A stretch of DNA of 64,000 nt from positions 41,469 to 105,468 of the forward strand of contig CAZNAX010000001.1 of assembly GCA_964570965.1 (NCBI GenBank). The letters run 5' to 3'. Origin of the DNA: an uncultured Desulfatibacillum sp. (GTDB lineage: Bacteria > Desulfobacterota > Desulfobacteria > Desulfobacterales > SpSt-501). Position numbers and translations under genes: made by a program. The notes below the pieces were generated by a model, which searched no databases, was not told the DNA's origin, and saw only the letters and a list, made by a program, of their open reading frames with translations. Shown in pieces: positions 1,914 through 52,206 of the stretch (the first letter of the stretch is position 1; each line of letters starts with the position of its first letter).

Positions 1914-3044
1914 ATGACAACGAGAGCTCAAGTCCTGAACGACCTGTTCGTCCAGAACCTCGATAGCTACGAAGGCAAGGAGAAGGTCGCACAAGCTGGT
2001 GGTACCTTCATCCGAGATCGTCTTCGTGAAGTCGCGTTCTCCAGGCAGGTCATCCCGCCCGAGAACGTCACCAAAGCCGACTGCCAGCGCAGCACGCGGC
2101 ACGACACCTTGGTCAAGATCATCGACGTGGAACCCCAGAGCAAAGCGATGGCGATCACATTCCGTGGTCAGCCAAATGCTCGCTTCGTTCGAGGTTCTCG
2201 TGCGGAGATCCCCTTCTTCACCATTTCGTCAGAGAAGTTCGAGAAGGTGGAGCAGGAGCTGCTTGCCTACGAGATGCCGATCACTCGCATCATCGAAGAC
2301 AACAGCGTGAAGGACATCCAAGAGATCGAAGACCGAGAGTTCTTGTTGCACATCGAAGCGGCTGTCCAGGCCATGCAGGCGGACGCAAACGGTGTTGCTG
2401 CTGCTCCGGCTCTCAACAACGCTGCCATCAATGGCGCCACTCCTCCGAAAGAGTTCTCAGTCCGCAAGGGCGAGCTCTGTCGGCAGGTTGGTGTGGCTGA
2501 CAACTCGTACATCTGGCCGCTTCAGAGACCTGACCTGGTCAATATGCACAAGCTGCTGGATGGGAACCGCTTGAGGGCTGAGAAGATCCTCATGACGGAA
2601 TACGACTTCGACGACCTCAACCAGTGGACCGTTGAGGACTTCGGCTCGAAGCTCGAAGGTGAGACGGCTGTAGACGGTTACAAGTACTCCACGCTGCTCG
2701 GTCGTGCGTTCGTCCGAACGATCAAAACCGACATTCTGCGTCCGGGGAACTTGTACGTCTTCACGTCTCCAGAGTTCTTGGGCAAGTTCTACGTCCTCAA
2801 CAACACGAAGTTCTACATCGACAAGATCGCGAATCTCATCACGTGGCAATCGTGGGAAGACATCGCAATGTCGATCGTGAACATTGCTTCGGTTCGCAAG
2901 ATGGAGCTCTACTCCGGTGATGCGACGGCGCACAATACGGATTCGATCCGTACTGACGTCACGCCGAAGGACGAGGCCGATCTCGGAGCCGTGAACAACC
3001 GAGTCGATGCCGGCTTGGTGTTCCCACAGGTGAAGGTCTACTAG
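1914..3044 (+). CDS. Major capsid protein candidate (HK97-fold class)
   Basis: 376 aa with strong RBS AAGGAGG. It sits after the scaffold-like gene and is followed immediately by a perfect 10-bp GC hairpin terminator, as expected for a highly expressed gene. Size and composition fit an MCP. No search was run. Confidence 0.55.
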   Translation: MTTRAQVLNDLFVQNLDSYEGKEKVAQAGGTFIRDRLREVAFSRQVIPPENVTKADCQRSTRHDTLVKIIDVEPQSKAMAITFRGQPNARFVRGSRAEIPFFTISSEKFEKVEQELLAYEMPITRIIEDNSVKDIQEIEDREFLLHIEAAVQAMQADANGVAAAPALNNAAINGATPPKEFSVRKGELCRQVGVADNSYIWPLQRPDLVNMHKLLDGNRLRAEKILMTEYDFDDLNQWTVEDFGSKLEGETAVDGYKYSTLLGRAFVRTIKTDILRPGNLYVFTSPEFLGKFYVLNNTKFYIDKIANLITWQSWEDIAMSIVNIASVRKMELYSGDATAHNTDSIRTDVTPKDEADLGAVNNRVDAGLVFPQVKVY

Positions 3045-3915: not shown

Positions 3916-4433
3916 CAACTCTTCAGGGCATGGATAACCCTCTGATACCGGGGGCTACACAAACGTTCAATGTCTTCGTATCGCAGACACGTTTGTTCAT
4001 GCGAGACTTTCCAGAACTGAATCGACTGGTAGCTGGCGAAGAGTCGAGCGATAGGATGATCGCGTTTGCGGCTACGGAGGCTATGAGCGACTTCAACTCA
4101 GAGCCTCCACATCTGGGTTTCTACACCTTCGACATGTTCGTGTCGAAAGGGTGGATACATCCTTTGCGGATTGGTACCATCAATGAACTTCTGCACATGG
4201 TTGGATTGCTTCAGACCAGGAACCATCTACCCTTTTCGGATGGCGGGCTCAACGTTGCTGTGAGCGACAAGACCCCTCTACTCCAGAGCTGGATCCAACT
4301 CTTCGGTGCGAAGTGGGAGAATTGGAAGCAGAAGACGAAGGTCGCGCAGAACATCTCCGGCATTCTCACTGGAGCAGGTGGTGTGTCTAGCGAACTGTTC
4401 GCCGTAAATGGATATTTTGGGACATACTATTGA
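3912..4433 (+). CDS. Hypothetical virion-module protein
   Basis: 173-aa ORF with ATGA overlap to the upstream gene. Its position suggests a head completion or connector role, but no motif was recognised. Confidence 0.65.
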   Translation: MTTLQGMDNPLIPGATQTFNVFVSQTRLFMRDFPELNRLVAGEESSDRMIAFAATEAMSDFNSEPPHLGFYTFDMFVSKGWIHPLRIGTINELLHMVGLLQTRNHLPFSDGGLNVAVSDKTPLLQSWIQLFGAKWENWKQKTKVAQNISGILTGAGGVSSELFAVNGYFGTYY

Positions 4434-11000: not shown

Positions 11001-14000
11001 ATGGCACAAGCAATCCCCGAACTTCCGCAGCCTGGTGTGCAGGTCGTCCAGGAGTACACGGATCAGACCCCTGTTATCGTGATCCCGACGCTGGTTCCGT
11101 GCGTGGTCGGGGTAGCGAAGGAGATCCGCGAGCTCTACAACTCGGACGGCACTCTCAACACAGATATCATTGTGGATGGTCCAGCACTTGCTGTGGCCCC
11201 CAACGATCAGACTAGCTACACGGTAATGGACGCGCTCACGCTCCAGCTTCGGGTCAATGGCGGGGTTCTCCAGACCTTTACCATGCCCACTGGTGCTACG
11301 CCGCCAACTACCATGACGGCACAAGAGGTGGCTATCGCCATCAACGGTGCAGCGCCTCCTCCGATCAACTTCGCAGCCTATGTGCTAGCGGAAGACTCGG
11401 ATGGCGATGGTGTGGACGACAAGTGGTACCTCGAGCTCCGCTCCACCGCCACCGGAGAAGACACTTCCATCCAGATCGTTGGTGGGACTGCTATCACCAA
11501 GTTCGGTTGGGGTGAGGGGCAGACCTTCTACGGGCTTGGTGCCTACATCCAAGATAGCGTGTACCTGAAGCAGTCCAGCTTCCCGGATCCCAGAGGCAAC
11601 CTCGATGAGCTGAACATCGATGAGGACTCGATCCGAGTGTTCGTGGACCTCGGTACTGCTCCAAGGGAATTCCTGCGAACAGAGTCGTTCCTTCGGCTGG
11701 GGAGCTACTACAACGTAGTTGGACCAGTGTACGGTGTTACACCAGTTGATGATGGGGATGGAGACACTCTGACCCCGTACGTCGACTTCAAGAGCACTGG
11801 AGCATCGATCCCAAACTTCCAAGCTCTTGCTACTTCAGCCGCACTGACTGGCATTGTCGATCTATCGACATTCCAGCCTCTGCATGGCAAGGAGCTGATC
11901 CTCCAAATTGACGGTGGTGGAAAGCAGACCATCAAGTTCTACGGTCAACCGATCGTGTCCACCGACTCAACGGCTGGTGGTGGTTGGGACTTCACTGCCC
12001 CAGCTGGTGCGATCAATGGGCAGACGTTGAACCTTCTGGTCAACGGTGTGTCGCTTGTTGTGACGTTCGTTGCAGCTGCGTCCATAGCGGATGTCGTAAC
12101 TCAGATCAATGCGGTTTCAGTGGCTACCTTCGGCGTCAACATCGCCTATCGGTGCAATGCCGCTGGTGATTCAGCTCCTGCTGGTGTGTACGTGGGATTG
12201 TTCTATGGCGCCCAACCGGCTGTGAACATCGTCGCCAACACCGAGGTGCAGGTAGCTGCCAACGTTTCTACGGCCCACACCGAGATCATTGGTGATGCTC
12301 TAGCCCATACTCAGTTGCTCGGCAAGAATGCTGGAGCGGAGCCGGTAGATGATGTTGTCGAACAGATCAACAACGTCTACCCATCTGGTGTTGCTTCGTG
12401 GAGCACCAACTTTCTCAAGCTGCAGAGCCTGACCTCTGGGTACGAATCGAAGATCGAGATCGATTCAAACAGCACGTCGCTTGGATCACCGCAACCTACC
12501 CCAACCACCAATCTTGGTATCAATGTTGGTCTCAACGGCTACACCTACCATGGAAATCCGTTCCCAGTTCGTGTAGGGGATGCCATCTACGGTGATGGCG
12601 CCTACCTCGGCAACGTCAGTGAGATTCATCCCATGGCAACTCAGGGACGGATCAAGCTGGATCGAGAAGTAGCTGTTTCTGGAAGGTGGCAGTACTGGTA
12701 CTTCCTCGCTAAGAACCTGGATACCGTACTGAGCAGCCAGTGGGGCGTGACCGTTCCAACTCCGGACATCTACCTGGATACGCAGGGTAATGTGCACCTC
12801 AAGCACGACTTCTTGAGGGACATCTACGGACAACCTGTTTCGACAGCGGTAGTCATGCTCTACGTGATGTATACCGCTGTTCGACTGGATGTCACGGCAG
12901 CCTCTGCAGATCCAGCACTCTTGACGTTCAACAACATCAACGAGCTCGAGGCCGCGATGAGTCCGGTCACTCCGGAGAATCCGCTGGCCTACGGTGTCTT
13001 CTGTGCCCTTGGCAACTCGAATGGTGTGTCGGTCTCCTGCATCGGTGTGAGCGAGACCTTGGCCGACAAACCGTACGGAACGTTGGCAGCATTCCAGGAG
13101 GCGTTTGACTTCCTGCAGAGTTCGGAAGTGTACGGCATCGCCACCCTCACCAGCGATCTCGACATCGCCATGGCGGCTCAGCAGCATGTCAATACTATGA
13201 GCGAGCCGACCATGAAGGGTGAGCGTGTTGCAGTCGTTCACCTAGGCCGGCCGACTCGGAAGGTTGATACCATCGTTGCTTCTGGCAATGATGGTGACAC
13301 GATCGTCGGCACGCCAACCTATCTCGATACTGGCGTTCCGAATCTGTCACAGTTGCTCCTGGATGCTGGTCTCAATCCAGCAACCTTTGGGATCACGGAC
13401 GGTGTATTCCTCGATCTATCGGCTGATAGCTACAACTGGAACGTGATCGGACCGGTAGTTGGCGGTACGAGACTTCGGGTCAACACTATCTTCGCTCCGG
13501 GGCAGAATGACGATGGCTTCTACCACGATACCATTGGAGACTTCCCGACTCTGATCAGTGGTAGCTTCTCGGTGAAGATCAGAGGAGCTGCTGTTGCTTC
13601 CAAGGACGAGGAAGTAGAGACCGTCTATGCGCGAGGTCAGGGATTCAGCGATAGGCGCGTATGGATGATGCAGCTCGATCAGCTCAAAGCGACCATTGAT
13701 GGTATCGAGCAGCTGGTGCCTGGGTTCTACATGAACGCGGCCAAGGTTGGTATGGTTGGTGGGCAGCAGCCCTCTCAGCCCTTCACCAATCTTCCGATCG
13801 CAGTGTTCACCGGAGTCACTGGGACCAATGATAGGTACAACACCACGCAGCTCAATCAGATGGCTGCAGGTGGTGCTGACCTTACTGTGCAAGAGAACAA
13901 GAACGGTCCAATCTGGTCGCGCATGCAGGTCACCACCAAGCTGACGACCATCGAACAACGAGAGCAGTCGATCGTGAGAGCGGTTGACTACTGCGCGAAG

Positions 14001-14243
14001 TTCTACCGAATGAGCCTCAAGGTCTACATCGGTAGATACAACATCACGCAAGGATTCCTCGACACTCTCAGCACAGTGGCCCAAGGCCTGGGGCGATGGC
14101 TAGAGGAAGAGGGAAAAGTAGTGTCGGGTGCAGAGCTGAACAATCTGATCCAGGATGAGAACAATCCTGATACCGTTCTCGTTCAGGTCAGTATTGATCC
14201 ACTATACCCGTGCAACTATATTGTGATCACGATCATTGTCTGA
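11001..14243 (+). CDS. Contractile tail sheath protein candidate (unusually large)
   Basis: 1080 aa with RBS GAGGAG. The C-terminal about 200 aa (REQSIVRAVDYCAKFYRMSLKVYIGRYNITQGFLDTLSTVAQGLGRWLEEEGKVVSGAELNNLIQDENNPDTVLVQVSIDPLYPCNYIVITIIV) follow the pattern I associate with sheath C-terminal domains. A tube-sized gene comes next. Confidence 0.55.
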   Translation: MAQAIPELPQPGVQVVQEYTDQTPVIVIPTLVPCVVGVAKEIRELYNSDGTLNTDIIVDGPALAVAPNDQTSYTVMDALTLQLRVNGGVLQTFTMPTGATPPTTMTAQEVAIAINGAAPPPINFAAYVLAEDSDGDGVDDKWYLELRSTATGEDTSIQIVGGTAITKFGWGEGQTFYGLGAYIQDSVYLKQSSFPDPRGNLDELNIDEDSIRVFVDLGTAPREFLRTESFLRLGSYYNVVGPVYGVTPVDDGDGDTLTPYVDFKSTGASIPNFQALATSAALTGIVDLSTFQPLHGKELILQIDGGGKQTIKFYGQPIVSTDSTAGGGWDFTAPAGAINGQTLNLLVNGVSLVVTFVAAASIADVVTQINAVSVATFGVNIAYRCNAAGDSAPAGVYVGLFYGAQPAVNIVANTEVQVAANVSTAHTEIIGDALAHTQLLGKNAGAEPVDDVVEQINNVYPSGVASWSTNFLKLQSLTSGYESKIEIDSNSTSLGSPQPTPTTNLGINVGLNGYTYHGNPFPVRVGDAIYGDGAYLGNVSEIHPMATQGRIKLDREVAVSGRWQYWYFLAKNLDTVLSSQWGVTVPTPDIYLDTQGNVHLKHDFLRDIYGQPVSTAVVMLYVMYTAVRLDVTAASADPALLTFNNINELEAAMSPVTPENPLAYGVFCALGNSNGVSVSCIGVSETLADKPYGTLAAFQEAFDFLQSSEVYGIATLTSDLDIAMAAQQHVNTMSEPTMKGERVAVVHLGRPTRKVDTIVASGNDGDTIVGTPTYLDTGVPNLSQLLLDAGLNPATFGITDGVFLDLSADSYNWNVIGPVVGGTRLRVNTIFAPGQNDDGFYHDTIGDFPTLISGSFSVKIRGAAVASKDEEVETVYARGQGFSDRRVWMMQLDQLKATIDGIEQLVPGFYMNAAKVGMVGGQQPSQPFTNLPIAVFTGVTGTNDRYNTTQLNQMAAGGADLTVQENKNGPIWSRMQVTTKLTTIEQREQSIVRAVDYCAKFYRMSLKVYIGRYNITQGFLDTLSTVAQGLGRWLEEEGKVVSGAELNNLIQDENNPDTVLVQVSIDPLYPCNYIVITIIV

Positions 14244-39737: not shown

Positions 39738-39939
39738 GATCGAGCCTAAGTACCGAGCACATTTCCAGGCGAGTTACGGGGACTACTTCGTCTACAGCCA
39801 CTTCCTCGAGAGGCTAAAGTGGGAAGTAGGATGGCGGACGAAGATGAGAGGGGATAAGTTTATCGGATACGAGACAAGAAAGAAGAATAGGATATGGATC
39901 AAATTGAGTGAGGTAGATCACAGTGAAGCAGCAGAATAA
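39703..39939 (+). CDS. Paralog family B, member 2
   Basis: 78 aa (or GTG 39727). PKYRAHFQASYGDYFVYSHFLERLKWEVGWRTKMRGDKFIGYETR parallels the upstream gene. Confidence 0.55.
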   Translation: MGSGRGSEVKNEIEPKYRAHFQASYGDYFVYSHFLERLKWEVGWRTKMRGDKFIGYETRKKNRIWIKLSEVDHSEAAE

Positions 39940-41971
39940 ACCAATTCAGAAAGAGTTGATCAGAACTGAAATAAATCTTGATCAGATTTTCCAAGAGGGT
40001 GGTATCCTCTCAAAATCTCGATCAGGATACAAACTGCGTCCAGGCCAGCTATCCATGGCCAAAGCAGTTGAAGAAGCGATCCGCAGAGGCCAAACACTCA
40101 TGGCTGAGGGACCGACTGGAGTGGGCAAATCATTTGCCTACTTGATCCCGGCCATGTTGAGAATGGCTAACAAGACAGTTACTGATGCAAAGCGAGTCGT
40201 AGTCGCCACGGCAAATATTGCTCTGCAGGATCAACTATGCGGAAAGGATGTTCCATATCTAGTTGCGACGCTGCCTGGATGCCAAGATCTTAGGTACATG
40301 GTCGTGAAGGGGAGGAACAACTATGCCTGCATGATGAAGTTGGGGGAGATCGAAGAGAAAAGAGAAGAGTCAAAGCACACTGAGATCGCTTCAGCCTTTG
40401 ACTCTGAAGGGAATCTGCTCATCGAACCGAAAGCAAAGGAAAAGGATGAGGAGGTCAAGGATGAGGACATCTTCGATCCTGAGATTGGAGAGCTGATCGA
40501 ATGGGCAGCGAAGTCCCCTACCGGTGACAAGAACGAGCTGAGCAAGATCTACAGGACGTGGAACTTGGTCAGTACCAGTAGCGAAGACTGTCTGGGATCG
40601 AAGTGTCCCTACAAGAGCGGATGCTTCGTGAACAGAGCGAGAAGGAAGATGATGGTGGTCCCGATCCTCATATCCAATTATCACTTCCTCCTCACCAAGC
40701 CTACCATTGCGGAGGATAGCATCCTCATCTGCGATGAGGCGCATGATCTCGCTGACATAGCGAGGAATGTGCTGGGCTGGGACATCAGCCGATCATCATT
40801 CAGTCGAACACTCAGCTTCGTGAAGAAGCTTGACAATGGAGCTGCTGAGCGGATCAAGCAGCTCATCAACAACATGTGGATCGCTATCGAGAGCAAGCTC
40901 GAAGATGGGAAGCATCCACATCTTCGGATCAGGAGTTGGAGTGACGATGTGGGGTTCTCTCTGGATCCCATAATCGAACTATTGAGCAAGGTCATCATCG
41001 ATCACGACAAGGAGGGTGAAGAGGACATCAAAATGATCCGGGGGATCAAGATGTTGAACAACGCCCTGTCCAAGTTCGGTGAGCTGAAAGCGATCTCACC
41101 AGAAGACGGTAGAGTCTACTGGTTCGAGAGATCAGGTAAGTGGATAAACATTCACGCTGCCTACGTGGATGTGTCTGAGGCATTGAATAAGACACTCTAC
41201 GAGAACGCTCGTAGTGTGATCATGACCTCGGCCACCATGACATCCGGTGGCAGCTTCGAGTTCATACGTGAAGACGTTGGACTTGAGGTTGATGGAGAGA
41301 TAAGGGCACCAAGTCCATTCGACCTGAAGAGACAGGGAATGATCGTGGTGCCGAGAGATATGCCAGACATCCCCAAGTGGAACGAGCCTGCGAAGGTGAG
41401 GGAGTGGAACCGAAAGGCTGCTGAGTATGCAGTCCAGCTCATGAAGATCTGTGGTGGTAGGTGTCTCATGCTCTTCACCAGCTGGAGGAGCCTGGACGAG
41501 GTGCACGGTGTCGTCTCCAAGGAGGCGAGAGCTATGGGCATCCGTGTGCTGCACCAAAAGGATGCACCCAAGATGAAGCTGATCGAGCAATTCAAAGAGG
41601 ACGAGACGTCGGTTCTCTTTGGTGTTGCTAGCTTCTGGCAGGGTATCGACGTACCAGGCAAGGCATTGTCTGGTCTGTTCATCGACAAGATACCCTTCAT
41701 GGTGCCGAACACCCCATTCAATGAGGCACTGAGCGAATTGATCGAGGAACGAGGCGGCAATTCGTTCATGGACCTATCCGTCCCTCGAGCTACCATTGCT
41801 TTGTGCCAAGGTGTTGGAAGACTGATACGTACCACGACAGATCGTGGTATCGTCGTCATCACTGACACCCGTCTCATCAACAAGAGATATGGTGAGACGA
41901 TCGTACGTAGCCTTCCAGAATTCAAGAAGGTTCAGGACATGAGCAAAGCTGTTGGGTTCCTGGACTTGTAA
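39923..41971 (+). CDS. dinG: DinG/XPD-family ATP-dependent DNA helicase with Fe-S cluster domain
   Basis: 682 aa. Walker A EGPTGVGKSFAYLIPA and DEAH box ICDEAHDL. Four Cys (NNYACMM...EDCLGSKCPYKSGCF) sit between them. C-terminal FWQGIDVPG, IDKIPF and QGVGRLIR motifs. Confidence 0.85.
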   Translation: MKQQNKPIQKELIRTEINLDQIFQEGGILSKSRSGYKLRPGQLSMAKAVEEAIRRGQTLMAEGPTGVGKSFAYLIPAMLRMANKTVTDAKRVVVATANIALQDQLCGKDVPYLVATLPGCQDLRYMVVKGRNNYACMMKLGEIEEKREESKHTEIASAFDSEGNLLIEPKAKEKDEEVKDEDIFDPEIGELIEWAAKSPTGDKNELSKIYRTWNLVSTSSEDCLGSKCPYKSGCFVNRARRKMMVVPILISNYHFLLTKPTIAEDSILICDEAHDLADIARNVLGWDISRSSFSRTLSFVKKLDNGAAERIKQLINNMWIAIESKLEDGKHPHLRIRSWSDDVGFSLDPIIELLSKVIIDHDKEGEEDIKMIRGIKMLNNALSKFGELKAISPEDGRVYWFERSGKWINIHAAYVDVSEALNKTLYENARSVIMTSATMTSGGSFEFIREDVGLEVDGEIRAPSPFDLKRQGMIVVPRDMPDIPKWNEPAKVREWNRKAAEYAVQLMKICGGRCLMLFTSWRSLDEVHGVVSKEARAMGIRVLHQKDAPKMKLIEQFKEDETSVLFGVASFWQGIDVPGKALSGLFIDKIPFMVPNTPFNEALSELIEERGGNSFMDLSVPRATIALCQGVGRLIRTTTDRGIVVITDTRLINKRYGETIVRSLPEFKKVQDMSKAVGFLDL

Positions 41972-44485: not shown

Positions 44486-44516
44486 GAAAACATGATCTGC
44501 ATGTTTTTTTCTTAGA
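44486..44516 (+). terminator. Hairpin + TTCTTAGAT module (right copy of direct repeat)
   Basis: GAAAACATG (44486-44494) pairs with CATGTTTTT (44500-44508), followed by TTCTTAGAT. Confidence 0.6.
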
Positions 44517-44595: not shown

Positions 44596-45447
44596 ATGCC
44601 GAAAGTAACGAAGAAACCAGCAGAGCAGCCAGTTGACGACACCACAGTAGCAGTTCCCCTCGAGGAGATTGAGCCTGCACGCAGAGAGCTACGCAGGGGA
44701 GAGAAGATCCACATCGAAGACATCTTCGAGGTGGCACTTCCGGTGTGGATCAAGGCGTGGCCGGGCACCCCTCTGGTGATGAATAATTTGAAAGGCAAGA
44801 GCCACATTGGAGACATCCGAATGCGGCTCTGTGGATACAACACATCCAAGAAAGGAACCGTGCGGAACCCCTATGACGAGTACATTGGCGCAATGTACAT
44901 CGACGAGGAGGGTAGACACTGCTTCCCGACCCATGGGATCAAGTTGGCTATCTGTTCCGCACTCCAGTTCATACCGGAGATCCCGATGACGATGGCGAGA
45001 GCCCGTCGTCTAATCAAGGTCAACGTTGGTCAGGAGCTCACTCCGCTGGAGTGGGAGCCTGTTGCAAACAAGCCTCCGCTGGTCTTCTCGGTTGCTGAGA
45101 TGAAGCAGGAGGGGGCTGAGCTCAAGCCTGGTAAGGGGAAGAGGGCTACCGGCGTGTACTACACGGCAGCGGTGGCTGATGACATGCCGGAGCTGCGAGA
45201 GGACGTCGTCCGCCTCATGGGCAAGACGAGAGCTCCAGATCTCAGGTACAGGCCCCAGTACAGGGATTGGAGCGCGAAGATCGTTGTGTCCTTCCCACCG
45301 AAGATCATCACCACGAAATCCGTCTTCAACCTGATCAACATCGCGGGGAAGTACATTGGTCTCTGCGAATGGAGGCCGGAGAAGGGCGGAGAGTGGGGGA
45401 TGTTTAGAATTGACCAAGAGCGGACTGGGGCTGTGACCCTAGAGTAG
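44596..45447 (+). CDS. Hypothetical protein with C-terminal glycine-rich loop
   Basis: 283 aa with RBS AAGGAG. C-terminus LINIAGKYIGLCEWRPEKGGEWGMFRI is loosely reminiscent of RAMP/Cas6-type G-rich loops, with very low confidence. It is followed directly by repeat array A. Confidence 0.65.
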   Translation: MPKVTKKPAEQPVDDTTVAVPLEEIEPARRELRRGEKIHIEDIFEVALPVWIKAWPGTPLVMNNLKGKSHIGDIRMRLCGYNTSKKGTVRNPYDEYIGAMYIDEEGRHCFPTHGIKLAICSALQFIPEIPMTMARARRLIKVNVGQELTPLEWEPVANKPPLVFSVAEMKQEGAELKPGKGKRATGVYYTAAVADDMPELREDVVRLMGKTRAPDLRYRPQYRDWSAKIVVSFPPKIITTKSVFNLINIAGKYIGLCEWRPEKGGEWGMFRIDQERTGAVTLE

Positions 45448-45812
45448 CCTCTTCGGAGGCGAAGTGAAGCGGCTGTAGCGAATGGGATTGGAAAGCCAGG
45501 TCCAGGCTGTAGTGGCAGGGATCGACATGGAGTACCGTGGCTGTACTGGAAAGCCAAGGCCATGACTGGAACGGATGGGATTGGTCGGGCTGAACAGGAT
45601 AGAACGGCAAGCCATTGGAAGCAATTGGAGGGGCTGTACAGGCCAACAGAGGTTGGGAGGTGTATGGAGCTGAGCGGAGCGATCTGATCGGCTGTAGCGG
45701 AAAGAGATGGAGAGGTGAGCAAGGGCGGTCCCGGATTACTAGGGCAGACAGGGCAGTGATCTGGCTGCAATGGAAAGCCATCGAAAGAGGTGGTATGTCT
45801 GGGATGGCTCGT
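45447..45812 (+). repeat. Purine-rich GGCTGTA motif array A
   Basis: It opens with GCCTC-ttcg-GAGGC (45447-45460) plus GAAGTGAAGC. GGCTGTA occurs at 45471, 45505, 45539, 45632 and 45690. Variants GGCTGAA at 45588 and GGCTGCA at 45763. C-poor on the plus strand. Confidence 0.85.
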
Positions 45813-45853
45813 GATCCTGGGGATGAAGTAATCTCTCCCCAGGATCGTTTTTG
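45813..45853 (+). terminator. Strong intrinsic terminator closing array A
   Basis: GATCCTGGGGA (45813-45823) pairs perfectly with TCCCCAGGATC (45836-45846), followed by GTTTTTG. Confidence 0.8.
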
Positions 45854-45870
45854 ACAAGAAAGGAGCTGCG

Positions 45871-46359
45871 ATGGCCAGAAATAGGAGGAAGTTCGCTTGG
45901 CGAACTCCTCACTTCTATCAAGGGATCGATCCTGACGAGGTAGCCAGGGAGCTCGAGGACATCAAAGAAGAGAACGGCTTGCTCACACCATCGCTCGTGG
46001 TTGAGCGAGCACGCGATTCTATGTCGGCGCTCCACGCCTGCTTCGAGTGGAATGATACGACGGCTGCGGAGAAGTACCGGCTCCAGCAGGCAAGGACGTT
46101 GATCCTGAACGTCCAAGTGATCGTCAAACACTCTGAGCCACAGATCTTCCTAGTTCAGATCGAGAACAAGGAAGGGAAGAAGACCTATGAGGATGTTGAG
46201 CTGGTGACTGAAGAGGCGGCCTGCCTCGTCATGGCCAATGCCCTCAAAGATCTGAAGGCGTGGATGAAGAGATACAACGAGCTGAAAGATAGGTTACCTC
46301 TGAGCAAAGTCTTCAGCGCTGTCGATGAGGCGTTGAGGCAGACTGGGGCACAGCCCTAG
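45871..46359 (+). CDS. Hypothetical protein flanked by the two arrays
   Basis: 162 aa with RBS AAAGGAG. ALHACFEWNDTTAAEKYRLQQARTLI resembles a short motif I recall from small phage proteins near packaging genes. Unverified. Confidence 0.65.
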   Translation: MARNRRKFAWRTPHFYQGIDPDEVARELEDIKEENGLLTPSLVVERARDSMSALHACFEWNDTTAAEKYRLQQARTLILNVQVIVKHSEPQIFLVQIENKEGKKTYEDVELVTEEAACLVMANALKDLKAWMKRYNELKDRLPLSKVFSAVDEALRQTGAQP

Positions 46360-46363
46360 AGTA

Positions 46364-47023
46364 AGCAGCTTGGCTGCTGAAGTGAACCGGCAGCAGATGA
46401 AAGGTTAGGAGGGGCTTGGGAGGCAAGATTGGGCTGTAAAGGATGGCATAGATCGGGTTAGGACCGGATCGGTTGGGATTGAACGGCTGTAGTGGTTTCT
46501 AAGGGTTAGGAAGTGAAGGGTCGGGAGGGTTCAGGCTGTAAAGGAGGGGAAAGGTAATGTAGGGGTCGGGCAAGGAAATTACAGAAAAGGCTGTAGAGGA
46601 TAGGATGGGAGATGGATTGGACGGTTAGGGCCGTAAGGGCGTAGATCGGAGAGAAGCGGGAAGGTAGGGCTGTAATGAAATGAAGAATCGATAACGGGGA
46701 AGGAACTGACGGGATTAGGCTGAAGAGGAGTTGACTGCAGGGAATGGGCGCTGCTTGGCGAGTCGTATCTTGGCTGAACAGGCGAGAAATGCTCTGAGAA
46801 GGCGATGCCTTGGTACGGCTGTATTGGAGTGCAAGGCAGGCGGACTGATCAGGAAGGGCTGTACCGGATTGCCATGAAGTGTATTGCTGATCATGCGAAT
46901 GGCTGTAGCGGAGCGGATTGGCGCTGATAGCAATGTAGGGGCTGGGCTGTAGTGGAACGGATTGGAGTTGACAGTGATGCAGTGGCGGACCTGGTCTGCA
47001 TGCCATGGGCACCCACGTGTTTT
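46364..47023 (+). repeat. Purine-rich GGCTGTA motif array B
   Basis: It opens with AGCAGC-ttg-GCTGCT (46364-46378) plus GAAGTGAACC. GGCTGTA occurs at 46432, 46485, 46534, 46589, 46668, 46817, 46857, 46901 and 46945. Variants at 46629, 46718 and 46772. Spacing is 39-55 nt, and many copies read GGCTGTAnnGGA. Confidence 0.85.
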
Positions 47024-47066
47024 GATCCTGGGAGGGAGACCGTTCTCTTCCAGGATCATTTTCTTT
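47024..47066 (+). terminator. Intrinsic terminator closing array B
   Basis: GATCCTGGGAG (47024-47034) pairs with CTCTTCCAGGATC (47045-47057), followed by ATTTTCTTTAGAT. It is a near copy of the 45813 terminator. Confidence 0.75.
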
Positions 47067-47071
47067 AGATG

Positions 47072-47141
47072 ATCATAAAATAAGGCCCTCGTTCAGTTCC
47101 ACTATCCTTGTAAGGACAACACTGGAACCGTTCGAGGGCCT
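47072..47141 (-). terminator. Long hairpin terminator for the minus-strand tail cluster
   Basis: AGGCCCTCG (47083-47091) pairs with CGAGGGCCT (47133-47141), with inner GTTCCA/TGGAAC pairing. On the minus strand it is followed by TATTTTATGAT. Confidence 0.7.
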
Positions 47142-47195
47142 CACGGCGCCGCCATGTAAGAGGGATCGTATCGTAGACGCATTTCAGAAGCAAGA

Positions 47196-47897
47196 CTACA
47201 GTCCGTAGGTAGTACGGATGAGACGGACATCGCTATCTGTGAGGCGGGTGGTGGCGGTGTTCAGCTCGTCTGTCACCATGCGCGGATACATGAGTGAGCT
47301 GATGAACTGATCATGAGAGAGTCCGATCACATGACCCAGTTCGTGGAGTGTGGTGACGAAAGCAAGTCTATCAGAGGAGGTTTCTCTGATACGAACTATG
47401 GACTGTATAGACTGCATCGTCGTTCCGATCTTAGCATGGTTGACGTAGCCACCAATCTTTCCGCTCTCGGAACCCGTAGCTCCGACTACTGACGGCGCAC
47501 CCCAGATCACTACTACATCTGGTTCCTCATCCGCAATATTGGCGACGCTGAAAAGGAGCTTTCCAACTTGGAGATTGAAGTCGTCCATAGCCTCTTTGAC
47601 TATCTTCGATCCCCTATCTTGCTCTTTGAGTGCCGTATGGTTGTTGCTGAATACGACGACGGATAGCGGTAGTTGCTTTTGTGGCCACACCAGAGGAACT
47701 GGGTTCTTGCACTGCCCGCTATCCCCCTCCCCTTGTATGTCTTCGGTGTAGGAAGCGTGCCCATTGTCCCAGCACACTTGGAGCAGGCCTGCTTCCTGAT
47801 GTGTAACCACCCCATAGACAACGCAGCAGGCAGCGATGACGGCGAATACCAGGATCACTAGTCCCCACGTTCTGAGAGAGCTCTGTTTCGTTTCCAT
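47196..47897 (-). CDS. Matrixin-type (M10, metzincin) zinc metalloprotease with N-terminal signal anchor
   Basis: 233 aa with RBS AGGAGA. HELGHVIGLSH (HExxHxxGxxH) followed by the Met-turn SLMYP. N-terminal TM WGLVILVFAVIAACCVVYGV. Confidence 0.8.
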   Translation of the reverse strand: METKQSSLRTWGLVILVFAVIAACCVVYGVVTHQEAGLLQVCWDNGHASYTEDIQGEGDSGQCKNPVPLVWPQKQLPLSVVVFSNNHTALKEQDRGSKIVKEAMDDFNLQVGKLLFSVANIADEEPDVVVIWGAPSVVGATGSESGKIGGYVNHAKIGTTMQSIQSIVRIRETSSDRLAFVTTLHELGHVIGLSHDQFISSLMYPRMVTDELNTATTRLTDSDVRLIRTTYGL

Positions 47898-50273: not shown

Positions 50274-50458
50274 TAGACAGTCTCCACGATAAAATGCATC
50301 TTAGATTTCAGAAGCAGCCGTTGCTCTTCTTTGGACAGCGCAAGCCACACAACTCTCATTTGAGTTTGTACCCTACTAACTTCGTGTACCGCTCCATTGG
50401 CCTCGCTCTCAAGCATCAACTTTTCCAAATGGACATAGTTTTGTAGCGTTGGACTCAT
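50273..50458 (-). CDS. Hypothetical small protein
   Basis: 61 aa. Both ends overlap neighbouring genes by 1-4 nt, suggesting translational coupling. Confidence 0.5.
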   Translation of the reverse strand: MSPTLQNYVHLEKLMLESEANGAVHEVSRVQTQMRVVWLALSKEEQRLLLKSKMHFIVETV

Positions 50459-52206
50459 ACAGTCTCCTGAACGTCAGCGATGGTCAGAGTCCCCAACGTA
50501 TTCTGTCCAGCAAGTGTTACGTCATTCAGCCAGACCGTCGTTGGGTTGGTGCCAATCGAGTCCACAGTCAGCGTATCCACGATGTCCGCATGATCCCCCT
50601 GAACAGCGTTCCGAAGCCCGGTGTGGTTGTTCAACGAAAGCACGCCAAACGTGAGCTTGGTGTACGTGACCACTGGAACGTTCATCGTGGTGGACTGTGA
50701 GAACGCTGCGAAGGTCAACGTTCGAGCTACGAATCCACCGATCGTGTATGCAGCACTTGCTGGCGCAATGGTAGTGGTCACCTTTCCGGCTCTGTTCGTG
50801 ACTGAGAAAGCTCCCCAGTTGTGAGACGCATGGACATCGTTGTCGTGGACGGAGAGACTTCGTGTCCAAGAAGATGGTCCACCAGTCCATGATCCAAGCC
50901 ATGTACCGCCATTTACGTCTGTGGCAAGAGACGGTGCTGCGTACGCTGGCTGATCAAGTGCGATAGTGATCGTGTGAGACTGTGCGGAAGTTCCATTGTT
51001 GCCACCAGATCGAAGTCTAGCTGCTGGAAGAGTGATCGTGGCGGCAGAGATGGCAACGTGGGCAATAGCAGCGTAGCTGTCCACAGTGGTCTGAGAGCCA
51101 TTGGCCTCTCTGCTCAAGACCATTCTGAAGTTGACTCCGCTAAACCTAGTATCTCCTGCGATCCTGGTAACAACCTTGGCAGCCTCGAAGGTGCTTGGGT
51201 TGGCGATGCTGAGTTCGGCTGGAGCACTTGGGCTCGTGAAGGCTACCGTATCGTAGTTGGATGCTGTGAGGTTGAACGTAGCGCTCTCTGCATCCTTCAG
51301 AGCGGATTGCCCTGCCGGGTAGTTGATGGAAGCAACCGATCCAGACGGATAGCGGTTGTTGAGAGCGACAAGATCGTGTCCGTCAACAGAACCACCAAGC
51401 TCGTTCGTTGCTCTGACATTACCGAAGGCACCGGCAGCGTTGTGCACCTTCATCTTGGCTGCGAGGTTCTGTAGGGTCGTTCCTCTATCAGCGATGGTGA
51501 TCGAAACGGTTCCAGAAGTGGCTGGGGCAAACGCGAAGGTCTGTAGAGTCCCTGCCCCGTCGTTGAGCACGGTGGCTCCAGTGCAGGGAAGATCAGAAAC
51601 AAAGTGGAGGTCGAAGGTGTCTCCCGCTTTGAGCTCCGTTTGGGGCGTACCAGGAAGCCACGGGACATCCGGATAACCTCCAGTGAAGTAAAGATCCAGA
51701 AGTTGAGGAGGCAGTTCGATTGCAACAGCAACGTCATCTCTTGCGCTTGCGAGTCCTTCTGGCGTCAGTACAACGATCCCAATTGTCTCTCCAGCAGGAT
51801 CAATAACAACATCCACCGTGCCAGAGTAGTGCCCCTCGTCCAACGAAGGAGTCAAGGTCTCGTTGACCGTTCCAGCCAACGTGATGACTCTAACTTCGGG
51901 ATACGAGGAGTTGATCGTAAGCCTGACATCTACGGTAGAACAAGTGAACGATTGCAACACTGTGTTGTCGGGAGGATTCTGGTAGACCTGGTCGCTGACC
52001 ATACCACCAGTAGGTGATGCTGCGTCGGTCAGATAGATAAAGCCTTGGCCTGATTCACTGATCTTGCTATCAATGTATGTTTCGAGGGATGTAAAGGCGC
52101 CATCGATGTCTCTGCGAAGGTCCATTATCTCGGCAGCCAGACCTCCTGACTTGCGAACCAGGTGTGGTCTGAGCGGATGTGAGCCGCCAAAGGATCTGCT
52201 TCCCAT
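50455..52206 (-). CDS. Tail fibre candidate
   Basis: 583 aa. After an N-terminal helical segment (AAEIMDLRRDIDGAFTSLETYIDSKI) comes Thr/Ser/Gly/Ala/Val-rich beta sequence typical of fibre shafts. It is the first gene of the minus-strand cluster. Confidence 0.5.
   Translation of the reverse strand: MGSRSFGGSHPLRPHLVRKSGGLAAEIMDLRRDIDGAFTSLETYIDSKISESGQGFIYLTDAASPTGGMVSDQVYQNPPDNTVLQSFTCSTVDVRLTINSSYPEVRVITLAGTVNETLTPSLDEGHYSGTVDVVIDPAGETIGIVVLTPEGLASARDDVAVAIELPPQLLDLYFTGGYPDVPWLPGTPQTELKAGDTFDLHFVSDLPCTGATVLNDGAGTLQTFAFAPATSGTVSITIADRGTTLQNLAAKMKVHNAAGAFGNVRATNELGGSVDGHDLVALNNRYPSGSVASINYPAGQSALKDAESATFNLTASNYDTVAFTSPSAPAELSIANPSTFEAAKVVTRIAGDTRFSGVNFRMVLSREANGSQTTVDSYAAIAHVAISAATITLPAARLRSGGNNGTSAQSHTITIALDQPAYAAPSLATDVNGGTWLGSWTGGPSSWTRSLSVHDNDVHASHNWGAFSVTNRAGKVTTTIAPASAAYTIGGFVARTLTFAAFSQSTTMNVPVVTYTKLTFGVLSLNNHTGLRNAVQGDHADIVDTLTVDSIGTNPTTVWLNDVTLAGQNTLGTLTIADVQETV

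Follow-up and report, generated by a model that had tools for sequence, protein, structure and literature searches.

What are the two intergenic regions, each studded with copies of the heptamer GGCTGTA, that lie on either side of a small gene in a 64-kb window (the whole stretch of DNA analysed here) which also encodes a major head protein, a tail sheath and a helicase? Based on the evidence collected below, the segment 44596-47068 is understood as a VIPR (Viral Interference Programmable Repeat) locus of a myovirus-like phage, a reading to which we assign a probability of roughly 0.87, arranged in the order vipr, vrRNA array A, terminator, vap-like gene, vrRNA array B, terminator (Table 1). 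VIPR, a CRISPR-like RNA-guided silencing of DNA, was first described in 2026 preprints: Vipr protomers coat RNAs composed of GGY/NN pentamers, the NN of which read double-stranded DNA, skip every third base and silence rival phages (10.64898/2026.04.26.720920, 10.64898/2026.04.26.720927). Vipr itself is a minimal RAMP made up of an RRM core, a G-loop and a thumb; the loci sit mostly in phages or proviruses, and their guides match natural DNA targets but not the carrier's own DNA. The GGCTGTA-studded regions are very probably the short guide-RNA arrays of such a phage-encoded system. A preliminary description of this DNA had stated that no described element carries the motif; this is fair for the 7-mer, but the class of element has since been described as VIPR, and we regard the locus as a fresh example of a recently discovered class rather than as an unknown element.

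Table 1. Features assigned to the putative VIPR locus (window coordinates)
Feature	Position	Strand	Description
vipr	44596..45447	+	283-aa RAMP-family protein, predicted binder of pentamer RNA
Leader A	45437..45470	+	CCCTAGAGTA motif overlapping the vipr stop codon; hairpin; GAAGTGAA box
Leader A hairpin	45447-45460	+	GCCTC-TTCG-GAGGC
Leader A box	45461-45468	+	GAAGTGAA
Putative vrRNA array A	45471..45812	+	7 delimiter-started units: GGCUGUA + NN + degenerate GG(A)NN pentamers
Array A unit starts	45471, 45505, 45539, 45588, 45632, 45690, 45763		Lengths 34, 34, 49, 44, 58, 73, ~50 nt
Intrinsic terminator A	45813..45853	+	GATCCTGGGG...CCCCAGGATC + T-run; -22.4 kcal/mol, z -3.9
Probable vap (vipr-accessory) gene	45871..46359	+	162 aa; conserved FEW(N/D)D..AA..YR..QAR motif
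Leader B	46354..46386	+	CCCTAGAGTA motif overlapping the vap stop codon, in a different reading frame
Leader B hairpin	46364-46378	+	AGCAGC-TTG-GCTGCT
Leader B box	46379-46386	+	GAAGTGAA
Putative vrRNA array B	46387..47022	+	45-nt pentamer tract, then 12 delimiter-started units
Array B unit starts	46432, 46485, 46534, 46589, 46629, 46668, 46718, 46772, 46817, 46857, 46901, 46945		Lengths 39-55 nt; final unit ~78 nt
Intrinsic terminator B	47023..47068	+	TGATCCTGGGAGGGAG...CTCTTCCAGGATCA + T-run; -25.3 kcal/mol, z -4.6; terminator scan

The repetition of the heptamer is real. GGCTGTA occurs 21 times in the window, compared to a mean of 5.5 and a maximum of 14 in 100 shuffles of the sequence, and the two intergenic regions together hold 14 exact copies on the plus strand (5 at 45471-45696, 9 at 46432-46951). 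When the variant delimiters GGCTGAA (45588, 46718, 46772), GGCTGCA (45763) and GGCCGTA (46629) are taken along, the copy numbers reported earlier (5 exact and 2 variants in array A, 9 exact and 3 variants in array B) are recovered, as is the spacing of 39-55 nt in array B. The proposed extension of the heptamer to GGCTGTAnnGGA holds as well, with G, G and A found at +9, +10 and +11 in 98%, 85% and 78% of 60 distinct contexts from the clade. The composition requires correction: plus-strand C is not about 5% but 18% in array A and 14% in array B, falling to ~8-9% in the lowest 200-nt windows.

Both regions share one architecture, each a leader of hairpin and GAAGTGAA box followed by the array and then the terminator, as had been proposed. 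The leader layout is common to arrays A and B and to the relatives L244, L245, L246, L250 and L251. Stem sequences of the leader hairpins vary across relatives with the pairing kept, and leader B is retained in L251, L250 and L244 with a compensatory change of loop and stem end; this covariation comes from direct reading of the sequences only. The near-identical closing hairpins do fold as terminators, with energies well below those of shuffled sequences (Table 1). The stem of terminator A is conserved in L250 and L244 while its loop varies, and terminator B is conserved in L251 and L244. From the terminators together with the strand bias, the arrays are best read, in agreement with the preliminary description, as plus-strand untranslated RNAs that end at the terminators.

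The gene preceding array A encodes, as judged by homology and predicted structure, a Vipr protein of the RAMP family. A profile of 68 homologs matches PDB entry 36pp_D, 'SUSP1 Vipr protein', with an E-value of 4.8e-12; the single sequence retrieves the same entry at 1.5e-4 (residues 214-264 on Vipr 133-183), and BLASTP against the SUSP1 gene gives 2e-9. The AF2 model (pLDDT 85) has Csm3/Cas7-type RAMPs as its top 50 Foldseek matches in the PDB (best E 7e-6, probability 1.0). Residues R219, E258, W259 and R260 align with R138, D177, W178 and R179 of SUSP1 Vipr, the published positions of GG contact, and they are invariant or at least 90% conserved among the 68 homologs. The product also matches phrog_4652, and it exhibits an N-terminal extension and an insertion of ~50 aa compared to ordinary Viprs of about 200 aa. 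The earlier suggestion that this flanking-gene product could be the protein bound by the array sites agrees with this reading. The gene between the arrays is probably a syntenic, vap-like accessory. Its product matches phrog_15946 and has 360 homologs, all unnamed. Homologs adjoin vipr homologs in the same cultured phages and in L214, L258, L261 and L032, and are also found beside vipr homologs in viral contigs and MAGs. Comparison of the vap-like protein (AF2 model pLDDT 88) with the PDB by fold and sequence gave no significant match and no recognisable DNA-binding fold; a match of the product to RT_IV (E 2.6e-4) is weak and was judged spurious. Pfam and PADLOC searches with both gene products returned nothing useful.

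In sequence, both arrays are runs of GG(A)NN pentamers. Autocorrelation of GG peaks at lags of 5, 10, 15 and 20 (z up to 3.8), which the flanking coding sequences do not show, and in a scan of the whole window on both strands the 5-nt signal is confined to the two arrays, array B having the strongest lag-5 peak. The profile over the 60 delimiter contexts has G at 55-80% at phase positions 1-2 compared to ~25% off phase, A at 45-63% at position 3, and no bias at positions 4-5; in the arrays of the window, A is the commonest base at position 3 (43-53%). In-phase GG is retained by only about half of the pentamers, and the arrays are degenerate in this sense. GGCUG constitutes an in-phase pentamer, and the UA+NN after it shifts the register by -1. 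The resulting units comprise 5-12 pentamers, and the 9-nt GGCUGUA+NN is the sole element conserved between them. A pseudoknot-sized structured 3' tail was not found between the units of either array, nor was a hammerhead ribozyme in an Rfam search of the window or, at E<=10, within 45300-47200; a 4-bp GGCU/AGCC hairpin is possible at 3 of the 7 delimiters of array A. The 5-nt periodicity had been overlooked in the preliminary description.

Comparison with related phages adds an evolutionary dimension. Relatives occur among IMG/VR contigs and cultured phages, and every one examined has a GG-pentamer tract beside vipr, on the same strand. L032 carries 19 regular units of GGCUGUA-RY-(GGANN)5-16, and pentamer tracts are also present in L027, L226, L214, L166 and L236, with A occupying position 3 in 70-88% of cases in L032, L226, L214, L166 and L236. 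GGY tracts occur at genome loci from Planctomycetota, Bacteroidota, Chloroflexota, Proteobacteria and Firmicutes, and in the cultured phages UmaThurman (Gordonia phage) and Cy-LDV1 (Cyanophage). Among 185,579 scanned genomes, ten vipr relatives were found at identities of 26-47%, the best being 47% over a 75-residue segment, and a blastn search with the locus found no counterpart in 50,697 phage genomes. The viral-contig scan for three copies of GGCTGTA retrieved mostly unrelated tandem repeats (coding, or hairpin as in L048), with relevance limited to L032 and L027. Relative to phages whose Vipr is 97% identical, no change is seen in delimiters, leaders, trailers or terminators, but entire units have been replaced, inserted, deleted or duplicated: cassette-like replacement and insertion distinguish array A from L250, L251 and L252, and array B differs from L251 by replaced, deleted or duplicated units. 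At 80% Vipr identity the array interiors are unalignable, with motif density maintained.

These features lend themselves to a mechanistic proposal. The plus strand would be transcribed into C-poor RNAs ending at the two terminators, as the strand bias and the terminators suggest, and the low C content would, by our own reasoning, spare a long untranslated RNA from Rho. One Vipr protomer would then occupy each pentamer, the thumb arginine and the G-loop E-W-R holding GG(A) with the two variable bases exposed; conservation of the contact residues is observed, and the binding itself is deduced from homology to the solved SUSP1 complex. GGCUGUA+NN would serve as unit boundary, with GGCUG as the last in-phase pentamer and the 4-nt UA+NN breaking the register by -1, so that the transcript would be divided into ~19-20 short guides of 5-12 pentamers each. 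By analogy to experiments with the SUSP1 and P. fulva elements, the NN dinucleotides of the guides may pair with double-stranded DNA, every third target base being skipped, and the filament may silence the transcription of competing phages or mobile elements, aided by the vap-like protein (bioRxiv 10.64898/2026.04.26.720920, 10.64898/2026.04.26.720927).

With the type II VIPR of SUSP1 and a P. fulva prophage, the locus shares the phage-encoded setting, a small RAMP with conserved thumb Arg and G-loop D/E-W-R, an accessory gene (a probable one here) adjoining vipr, and long flanking regions of pentamers on the vipr strand, having conserved GG and two variable bases. It differs in the length of Vipr (283 aa compared to 195-202 aa), in a vap-like protein that shows no similarity to SUSP1 vap1 and is unrelated to it, and in the third pentamer position, which is ~80% T in the GGT/GGC repeats of SUSP1 but mostly A (43-53%) in the window. 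In SUSP1, GGY>GGA belongs to a set of substitutions with which silencing is reportedly lost, and purines are excluded from the solved pockets, yet the definition of VIPR admits 'a related consensus' (NNNGG and others) (10.64898/2026.04.26.720920, 10.64898/2026.04.26.720927); the adenine is thus evidence against the SUSP1 subtype and no objection to the VIPR family. A comparison of G-loop and helix-1 in 16 Viprs gave no clean residue correlate of GGA as opposed to GGY specificity. Regarding the guides, a SUSP1 vrRNA consists of ~12 repeats with its own leader and a ~35-nt pseudoknot tail, and characterised VIPR vrRNAs have 9-16 repeats and a conserved structured 3' tail, whereas the units in the window count 5-12 pentamers, lack the tail and abut, with only GGCUGUA+NN between them. 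Staggered, ribozyme-interspersed and single arrangements of vrRNA arrays have also been described (10.64898/2026.04.26.720920, 10.64898/2026.04.26.720927), and the legend of Fig. S18 refers to vrRNAs from positions overlapping by 1 nt (10.64898/2026.04.26.720920). Going by that legend, we infer that the arrays of UmaThurman and Cy-LDV1 represent the 'staggered' type. These arrays have in common with the window the vipr and vap families and contiguous units with a register slip of -1 per junction, but their junction is a 4-nt GGCA within GGY, compared to GGCUG+UA+NN within GGA-biased repeats here.

A bolder interpretation, which we advance tentatively and think on balance doubtful, is that the clade (the window, L244, L245, L250, L251 and, more distantly, L032 and L027) embodies a VIPR variant outside the characterised types, in which Vipr would read adenine at position 3 and the guides would lie head-to-tail, delimited only by the 9-nt GGCUGUA+NN with its register shift of -1. 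The delimiter could then be a filament stop or a processing signal that replaces the structured tail, and one long transcript could even be covered by a succession of short guide filaments that work in concert.

Other systems offer analogies. Class 1 CRISPR Cas7/Csm3 filaments share the RAMP fold, the single protomer per fixed RNA segment and the base-displacing thumb, and CRISPR arrays share the multitude of guides, which are gained, lost and replaced like cassettes from one close relative to another. The locus is distinct in being phage-borne, without repeat-spacer structure, and in guide information that would be non-contiguous, confined to 2 of every 5 nt; no cas1/cas2 or other cas genes occur among the scanned neighbours. 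A CRISPR array proper was considered and rejected: the match to CRISPR-DR12 is at chance level (16.6 bits compared to a gathering score of 37), and identical direct repeats of ~23-50 nt are absent, with only the 7-9-nt delimiter conserved. TRAP, an 11-site ring that reads (G/U)AG repeats in Bacillus trp leader RNAs and regulates attenuation, likewise involves a protein oligomer, a conserved trinucleotide every ~5 nt and non-conserved spacers, but its fold is unrelated and its ring is of fixed size, whereas an open helical filament with spacer bases as DNA-reading code is proposed for the window.

Among the alternatives, the one that survives best, improbable as we consider it, accepts that the arrays bind Vipr and denies that they are, or still are, guides to DNA: they could be decayed guides, decoys titrating the phage's own or a rival's Vipr, or the scaffold of a long multi-unit filament. 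The loss of GG from about half of the pentamers speaks for it, as do the many units of 5-8 pentamers, which would provide just 10-16 bp of specificity, and the outcome of the target searches. Exact NNx scans of IMG/VR with five guides (1 from L032, 4 from the window) gave 0, 0, 2 independent, 1 and 1 matches, close to the chance expectation for 18 specified bases, and these matches showed no extension and no convergence, no other guide falling on the same contigs. One match lies in a portal-like gene (L253-L255), with the skipped base at codon position 1; it has no extension, and that phage and the window have no proteins in common. Within the window, no self-match exceeded those of shuffled guides. 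Exact-match scanning is, however, a weak test for targets, and degeneracy is often found inside working vrRNAs (10.64898/2026.04.26.720920, 10.64898/2026.04.26.720927). The strict conservation of delimiters, leaders and terminators, while units turn over as cassettes, argues for guides in use, as does the NN conservation in orthologous units of clear phase: in four such units, 9/90 scaffold positions and 0/60 NN positions differ (Fisher p 0.011), a bias that is gone once phase-uncertain units are added (p 0.5).

Very unlikely, in our assessment, is the CsrB/RsmZ-like sponge favoured in the preliminary description, an RNA whose many GGA sites would tie up the CsrA/RsmA of the host. The arrays do resemble CsrB/CsrC/RsmX/Y/Z in being purine- and GGA-rich, terminator-ended non-coding RNAs with sites for many copies of one protein, and array A folds better than its shuffles (z -4.1). 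Array B, however, is no more structured than its shuffles (z +0.5), and GGA recurs every 5 nt in strict register instead of being presented in hairpin loops; no Rfam family matches at gathering thresholds anywhere in the window, and none of the Csr/Rsm families does so at E<=10 within 45300-47200. The arrays are always linked to a gene for a RAMP, not CsrA, whose homolog has been solved bound to such repeats, and relatives carry GGY in place of GGA; given the established specificity of CsrA, GGY would not be bound by it.

Less credible still are repeats acting as DNA (iterons, a pac site, an origin or a centromere-like site) and bound by a flanking protein, the other explanation offered earlier. 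An oriented 7-mer in 14 copies beside genes of unknown function would suit such a role, but the copies are confined to one strand, which has a strong G-over-C skew, their spacings of 34-73 nt are irregular and out of helical phase, an intrinsic terminator closes each array on the same strand, and the sequence between the motifs carries the 5-nt code of an RNA type. Homologs of these elements in SUSP1 and P. fulva are expressed, and they are recovered as RNA together with purified Vipr (10.64898/2026.04.26.720920, 10.64898/2026.04.26.720927). That the minus strand instead encodes proteins, as the listed ORFs of 114-232 aa (45159-45857, 45404-45781, 46506-47012, 46715-47059) might suggest, can practically be dismissed, since a G-poor minus strand without TAG/TGA stops keeps all frames open (in L032 all three for ~500 codons), the delimiter spacing is not a multiple of 3, and the indels relative to phages of 97% Vipr identity measure 1, 5, 6 and 49 nt.

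Understood as a VIPR locus, the segment has importance for a newly reported, CRISPR-related form of DNA reading by RNA, in which the code resides in 2 of every 5 guide bases; it would extend the known systems to a metagenomic phage lineage whose two compact arrays comprise ~19-20 guides. Two questions arise, namely how a Vipr pocket could accept A, though the solved pockets exclude purines, and how guides are delimited and matured with only the 9-nt, register-slipping GGCUGUA+NN between them; both bear on the engineering of multiplexed VIPR arrays. For genome annotation, C-poor GG-pentamer tracts beside genes of phrog_4652 and phrog_15946 are suggested to be guide arrays rather than sponges or small genes. 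In the genome of at least one cultured phage, such a tract is apparently annotated as a CDS.

The two intergenic regions are understood, from sequence and predicted structure, as the guide-RNA (vrRNA) arrays of a VIPR locus, comprising about 19–20 predicted guides, in which GGCUGUA would serve as a unit delimiter specific to the clade. The preliminary description had offered a CsrB/RsmZ-type protein-sponge RNA or DNA-level iterons, and both readings give way to this specific, recently published mechanism. VIPR systems were defined in two 2026 preprints from one group (bioRxiv 10.64898/2026.04.26.720920 and 10.64898/2026.04.26.720927), according to which Vipr is a phage-borne minimal RAMP that polymerises on vrRNAs with one protomer per repeat. 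The vrRNA consists of 9–16 pentamers, GGY being conserved and NN hypervariable, with a 3′ tail as cap; dsDNA is read by the NN dinucleotides, every third base being skipped (the NNx rule), the filament acts by silencing the transcription of rival phages, and the accessory gene vap enhances this. Seven types are distinguished; NNNGG, YNNNG and NNNNG are given as "related" consensus sequences of the repeat. Array layouts vary, and in the "staggered" layout of 10.64898/2026.04.26.720920 the vrRNAs overlap one another by 1 nt. VIPR as a kind is already known, if very recently, and the present locus is very probably a further example.

Annotation of ORF1, the vipr gene, returned a PHROG of unknown function as the sole match. 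The ORF1 profile (68 homologs) matches one solved structure, the "SUSP1 Vipr protein" (36pp_D, E 4.8e-12), as does the single sequence, and the AF2 model (pLDDT 85) matches Csm3/Cas7 RAMPs from CRISPR complexes of types III and VII. The GG-contact residues of SUSP1 (R138, D177, W178, R179) align with R219, E258, W259 and R260, all invariant or nearly so across the ORF1 family. The best genomic relatives are 26–47% identical over matched segments and, where most of the protein is covered, 26–33% (Planctomycetales and other MAGs). ORF2, the vap-like gene, belongs to a family of ~140–160-aa proteins with a conserved FEWxD..AA..YR..QAR motif and without a fold match in the PDB. Its homologs adjoin ORF1 homologs in cultured Mycobacterium phages (e.g., Quico, Brocalys), Gordonia phage UmaThurman, Cyanophage Cy-LDV1, viral contigs and MAGs. 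Beyond the head, tail-sheath-like and helicase genes, most large ORFs of the window, a myovirus-like phage genome, gave no Pfam or PHROG match; the zincin metallopeptidase gene keeps its position beside array B in three relatives (L244, L250, L251). Upstream of vipr, the divergent intergenic region contains a hairpin with T-run (AAACATGATCTGCATGTTTTTTT) and frequent GATC sites.

Coordinates of features in the window and in relatives (L-numbers, DNA fetched for comparison)
Feature	Location	Strand	Remark
ORF1 (vipr)	44596-45447	+	283 aa
ORF2 (vap-like)	45871-46359	+	162 aa
Array A	45471-45812	+	after ORF1
Array B	46387-47022	+	after ORF2
Leader motif CCCTAGAGTA	45437-45446; 46354-46363		overlaps vipr and vap-like stop codons in different reading frames
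GGCU/AGCC pairings, array A	45539-45555; 45763-45779; 45493-45508		GGCUGUACUGGAAAGCC
Hairpin with T-run	44488-44512		AAACATGATCTGCATGTTTTTTT
Zincin metallopeptidase gene	47196-47897	-	Peptidase_M10-like (E 2e-9), convergent with array B
Phage genes	1914-3044; 11001-14243; 39923-41971; 50455-52206		major head protein, tail-sheath-like proteins, XPD-like helicase
UmaThurman gene 40	L122 4571-4894; NC_031249.1 33362-33685		annotated hypothetical protein
Cy-LDV1 pentamer tract	L123 4440-4640		gap after g34
11-nt tandem repeat	L032 ~4050-4150	reverse	IMGVR_UViG_3300033148_004297
GGANN array	L226 13430-13789		35-nt delimiter
Contigs matched by 46718 guide	L253-L255		IMG/VR 3300032289_000414, 3300032226_000039, 3300032217_000126

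The arrays of GGCTGTA first noticed are real and non-random: the 64-kb window holds 21 copies against a shuffle mean of 5.5 (maximum 14), with 14 on the plus strand of the two regions (five within 45471–45696, nine within 46432–46951) and one-base variants (GGCTGAA, GGCTGCA, GGCCGTA) in the gaps between exact copies. Their shared layout is likewise borne out, direct reading placing a small hairpin followed by GAAGTGAA at both starts, and both ends carrying a strong hairpin and T-run (−22.4 and −25.3 kcal/mol; z −3.9 and −4.6). The C content, put initially at 5%, was set too low; it measures 18% in array A and 14% in array B, falling to 8–9% in the most skewed 200 nt. Rfam holds no family matching the arrays, and the locus matched no phage genome at the DNA level. 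In both leaders the order is CCCTAGAGTA, hairpin, GAAGTGAA, and among relatives the stem sequence varies with pairing always kept; it is read as a conserved array leader, with a possible role as a promoter −10-like element or in signalling RNA processing. Folding is more stable than in shuffles over the whole of array A (z −4.1) but not in array B (z +0.5). Three delimiters of array A have an AGCC 9–10 nt away with which their GGCU could base-pair. GATC brackets both array terminators.

Accurate as that account of the arrays was, it overlooked their five-nucleotide register of GG pentamers. When IMG/VR was searched for contigs with three spaced copies of GGCTGTA, most matches were unrelated repeats; the exceptions were two contigs, L032 and L027, which carry the 7-mer within perfectly regular pentamers, GGCTGTA-RY-(GGANN)5-16, all spacings being 9+5k. 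The window arrays are a degenerate form of this structure. In both arrays the autocorrelation of GG has peaks at lags of 5, 10, 15 and 20 nt, with further ones at 9, 14 and 19; these peaks are absent from the flanking genes, and no GG periodicity was found elsewhere in the window on either strand. In an alignment of 60 distinct delimiter contexts, taken from the window together with its close relatives, G was 55–80% at −30/−29 through −5/−4, 0/1 and +9/+10 through +44/+45, compared with ~25% off phase; the third pentamer position was A in 45–63%, and positions 4–5 were unbiased. From this phase profile, GGCUG is itself an in-phase pentamer, and the UA+NN that follows is a 4-nt element slipping the register by −1.

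Guides decoded by the NNx rule gave self-targets no more often than shuffled controls, and exact-pattern scans of IMG/VR gave 0–2 independent hits per 18–22 specified bases, about the chance level; these hits neither extended nor converged. By the NNx rule, the 9-pentamer guide at 46718 matches three related viral contigs within the 5′ part of a portal-like gene (837 aa). As many hits are expected by chance, and the skipped base falls on codon position 1, so the gene was rejected as a target.

A same-strand GG-pentamer tract lies beside the ORF1 homolog in every ORF1 relative fetched. Where Vipr is 97% identical (L250, L251, L252), the arrays align with those of the window, delimiters, leaders, last units and terminators being invariant and individual units replaced, inserted, deleted or duplicated. 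At 80% identity (L244) the array interiors no longer align, with motif density and both terminators kept; at 53% (L245, L246) single arrays of 1.5–2.1 kb carry GGCTGTA and/or GGCTGAC. Across four conserved units of unambiguous phase, 9 of 90 scaffold positions carry substitutions, against none of the 60 NN positions (p 0.011), a bias that is suggestive only, since it is lost once phase-uncertain units are included.

Relative to the SUSP1 type, the third repeat base is mostly A rather than ~80% T, units hold 5–12 instead of ~12 pentamers and have the 9-nt delimiter only, as opposed to their own leader and ~35-nt tail, the vap gene is unrelated, and Vipr is longer. For SUSP1, the VIPR preprints report GGY>GGA among those substitutions that abolish silencing, and purines are excluded from both solved pockets, so the window clade must read position 3 differently; no single Vipr residue was found to track A versus pyrimidine there. 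Such A-type repeats and such a compact delimiter may already be covered by figures of the preprints, or may not.

Only part of the family has the GGCTGTA delimiter; GGY repeats with other junctions occur in ten genomic relatives and in the cultured phages. UmaThurman gene 40 consists from end to end of GGY/NN pentamers, joined by 4-nt GGCA junctions that likewise slip the register by −1. It sits between gp39, the vipr homolog, and gp41, the vap homolog, so the annotated CDS is probably a vrRNA array. A tract of this kind is also present in Cy-LDV1. In L032, an 11-nt tandem repeat, (CCGACAACAAA)n, separates a 1.45-kb GGANN/GGCTGTA array from a vap-like gene. The related array of L226 has a quite different delimiter, GGCTTTTTATCATCCATATCCATACCGAAACA, between tracts of ~16 pentamers, and L214 and L166 have yet other junctions.
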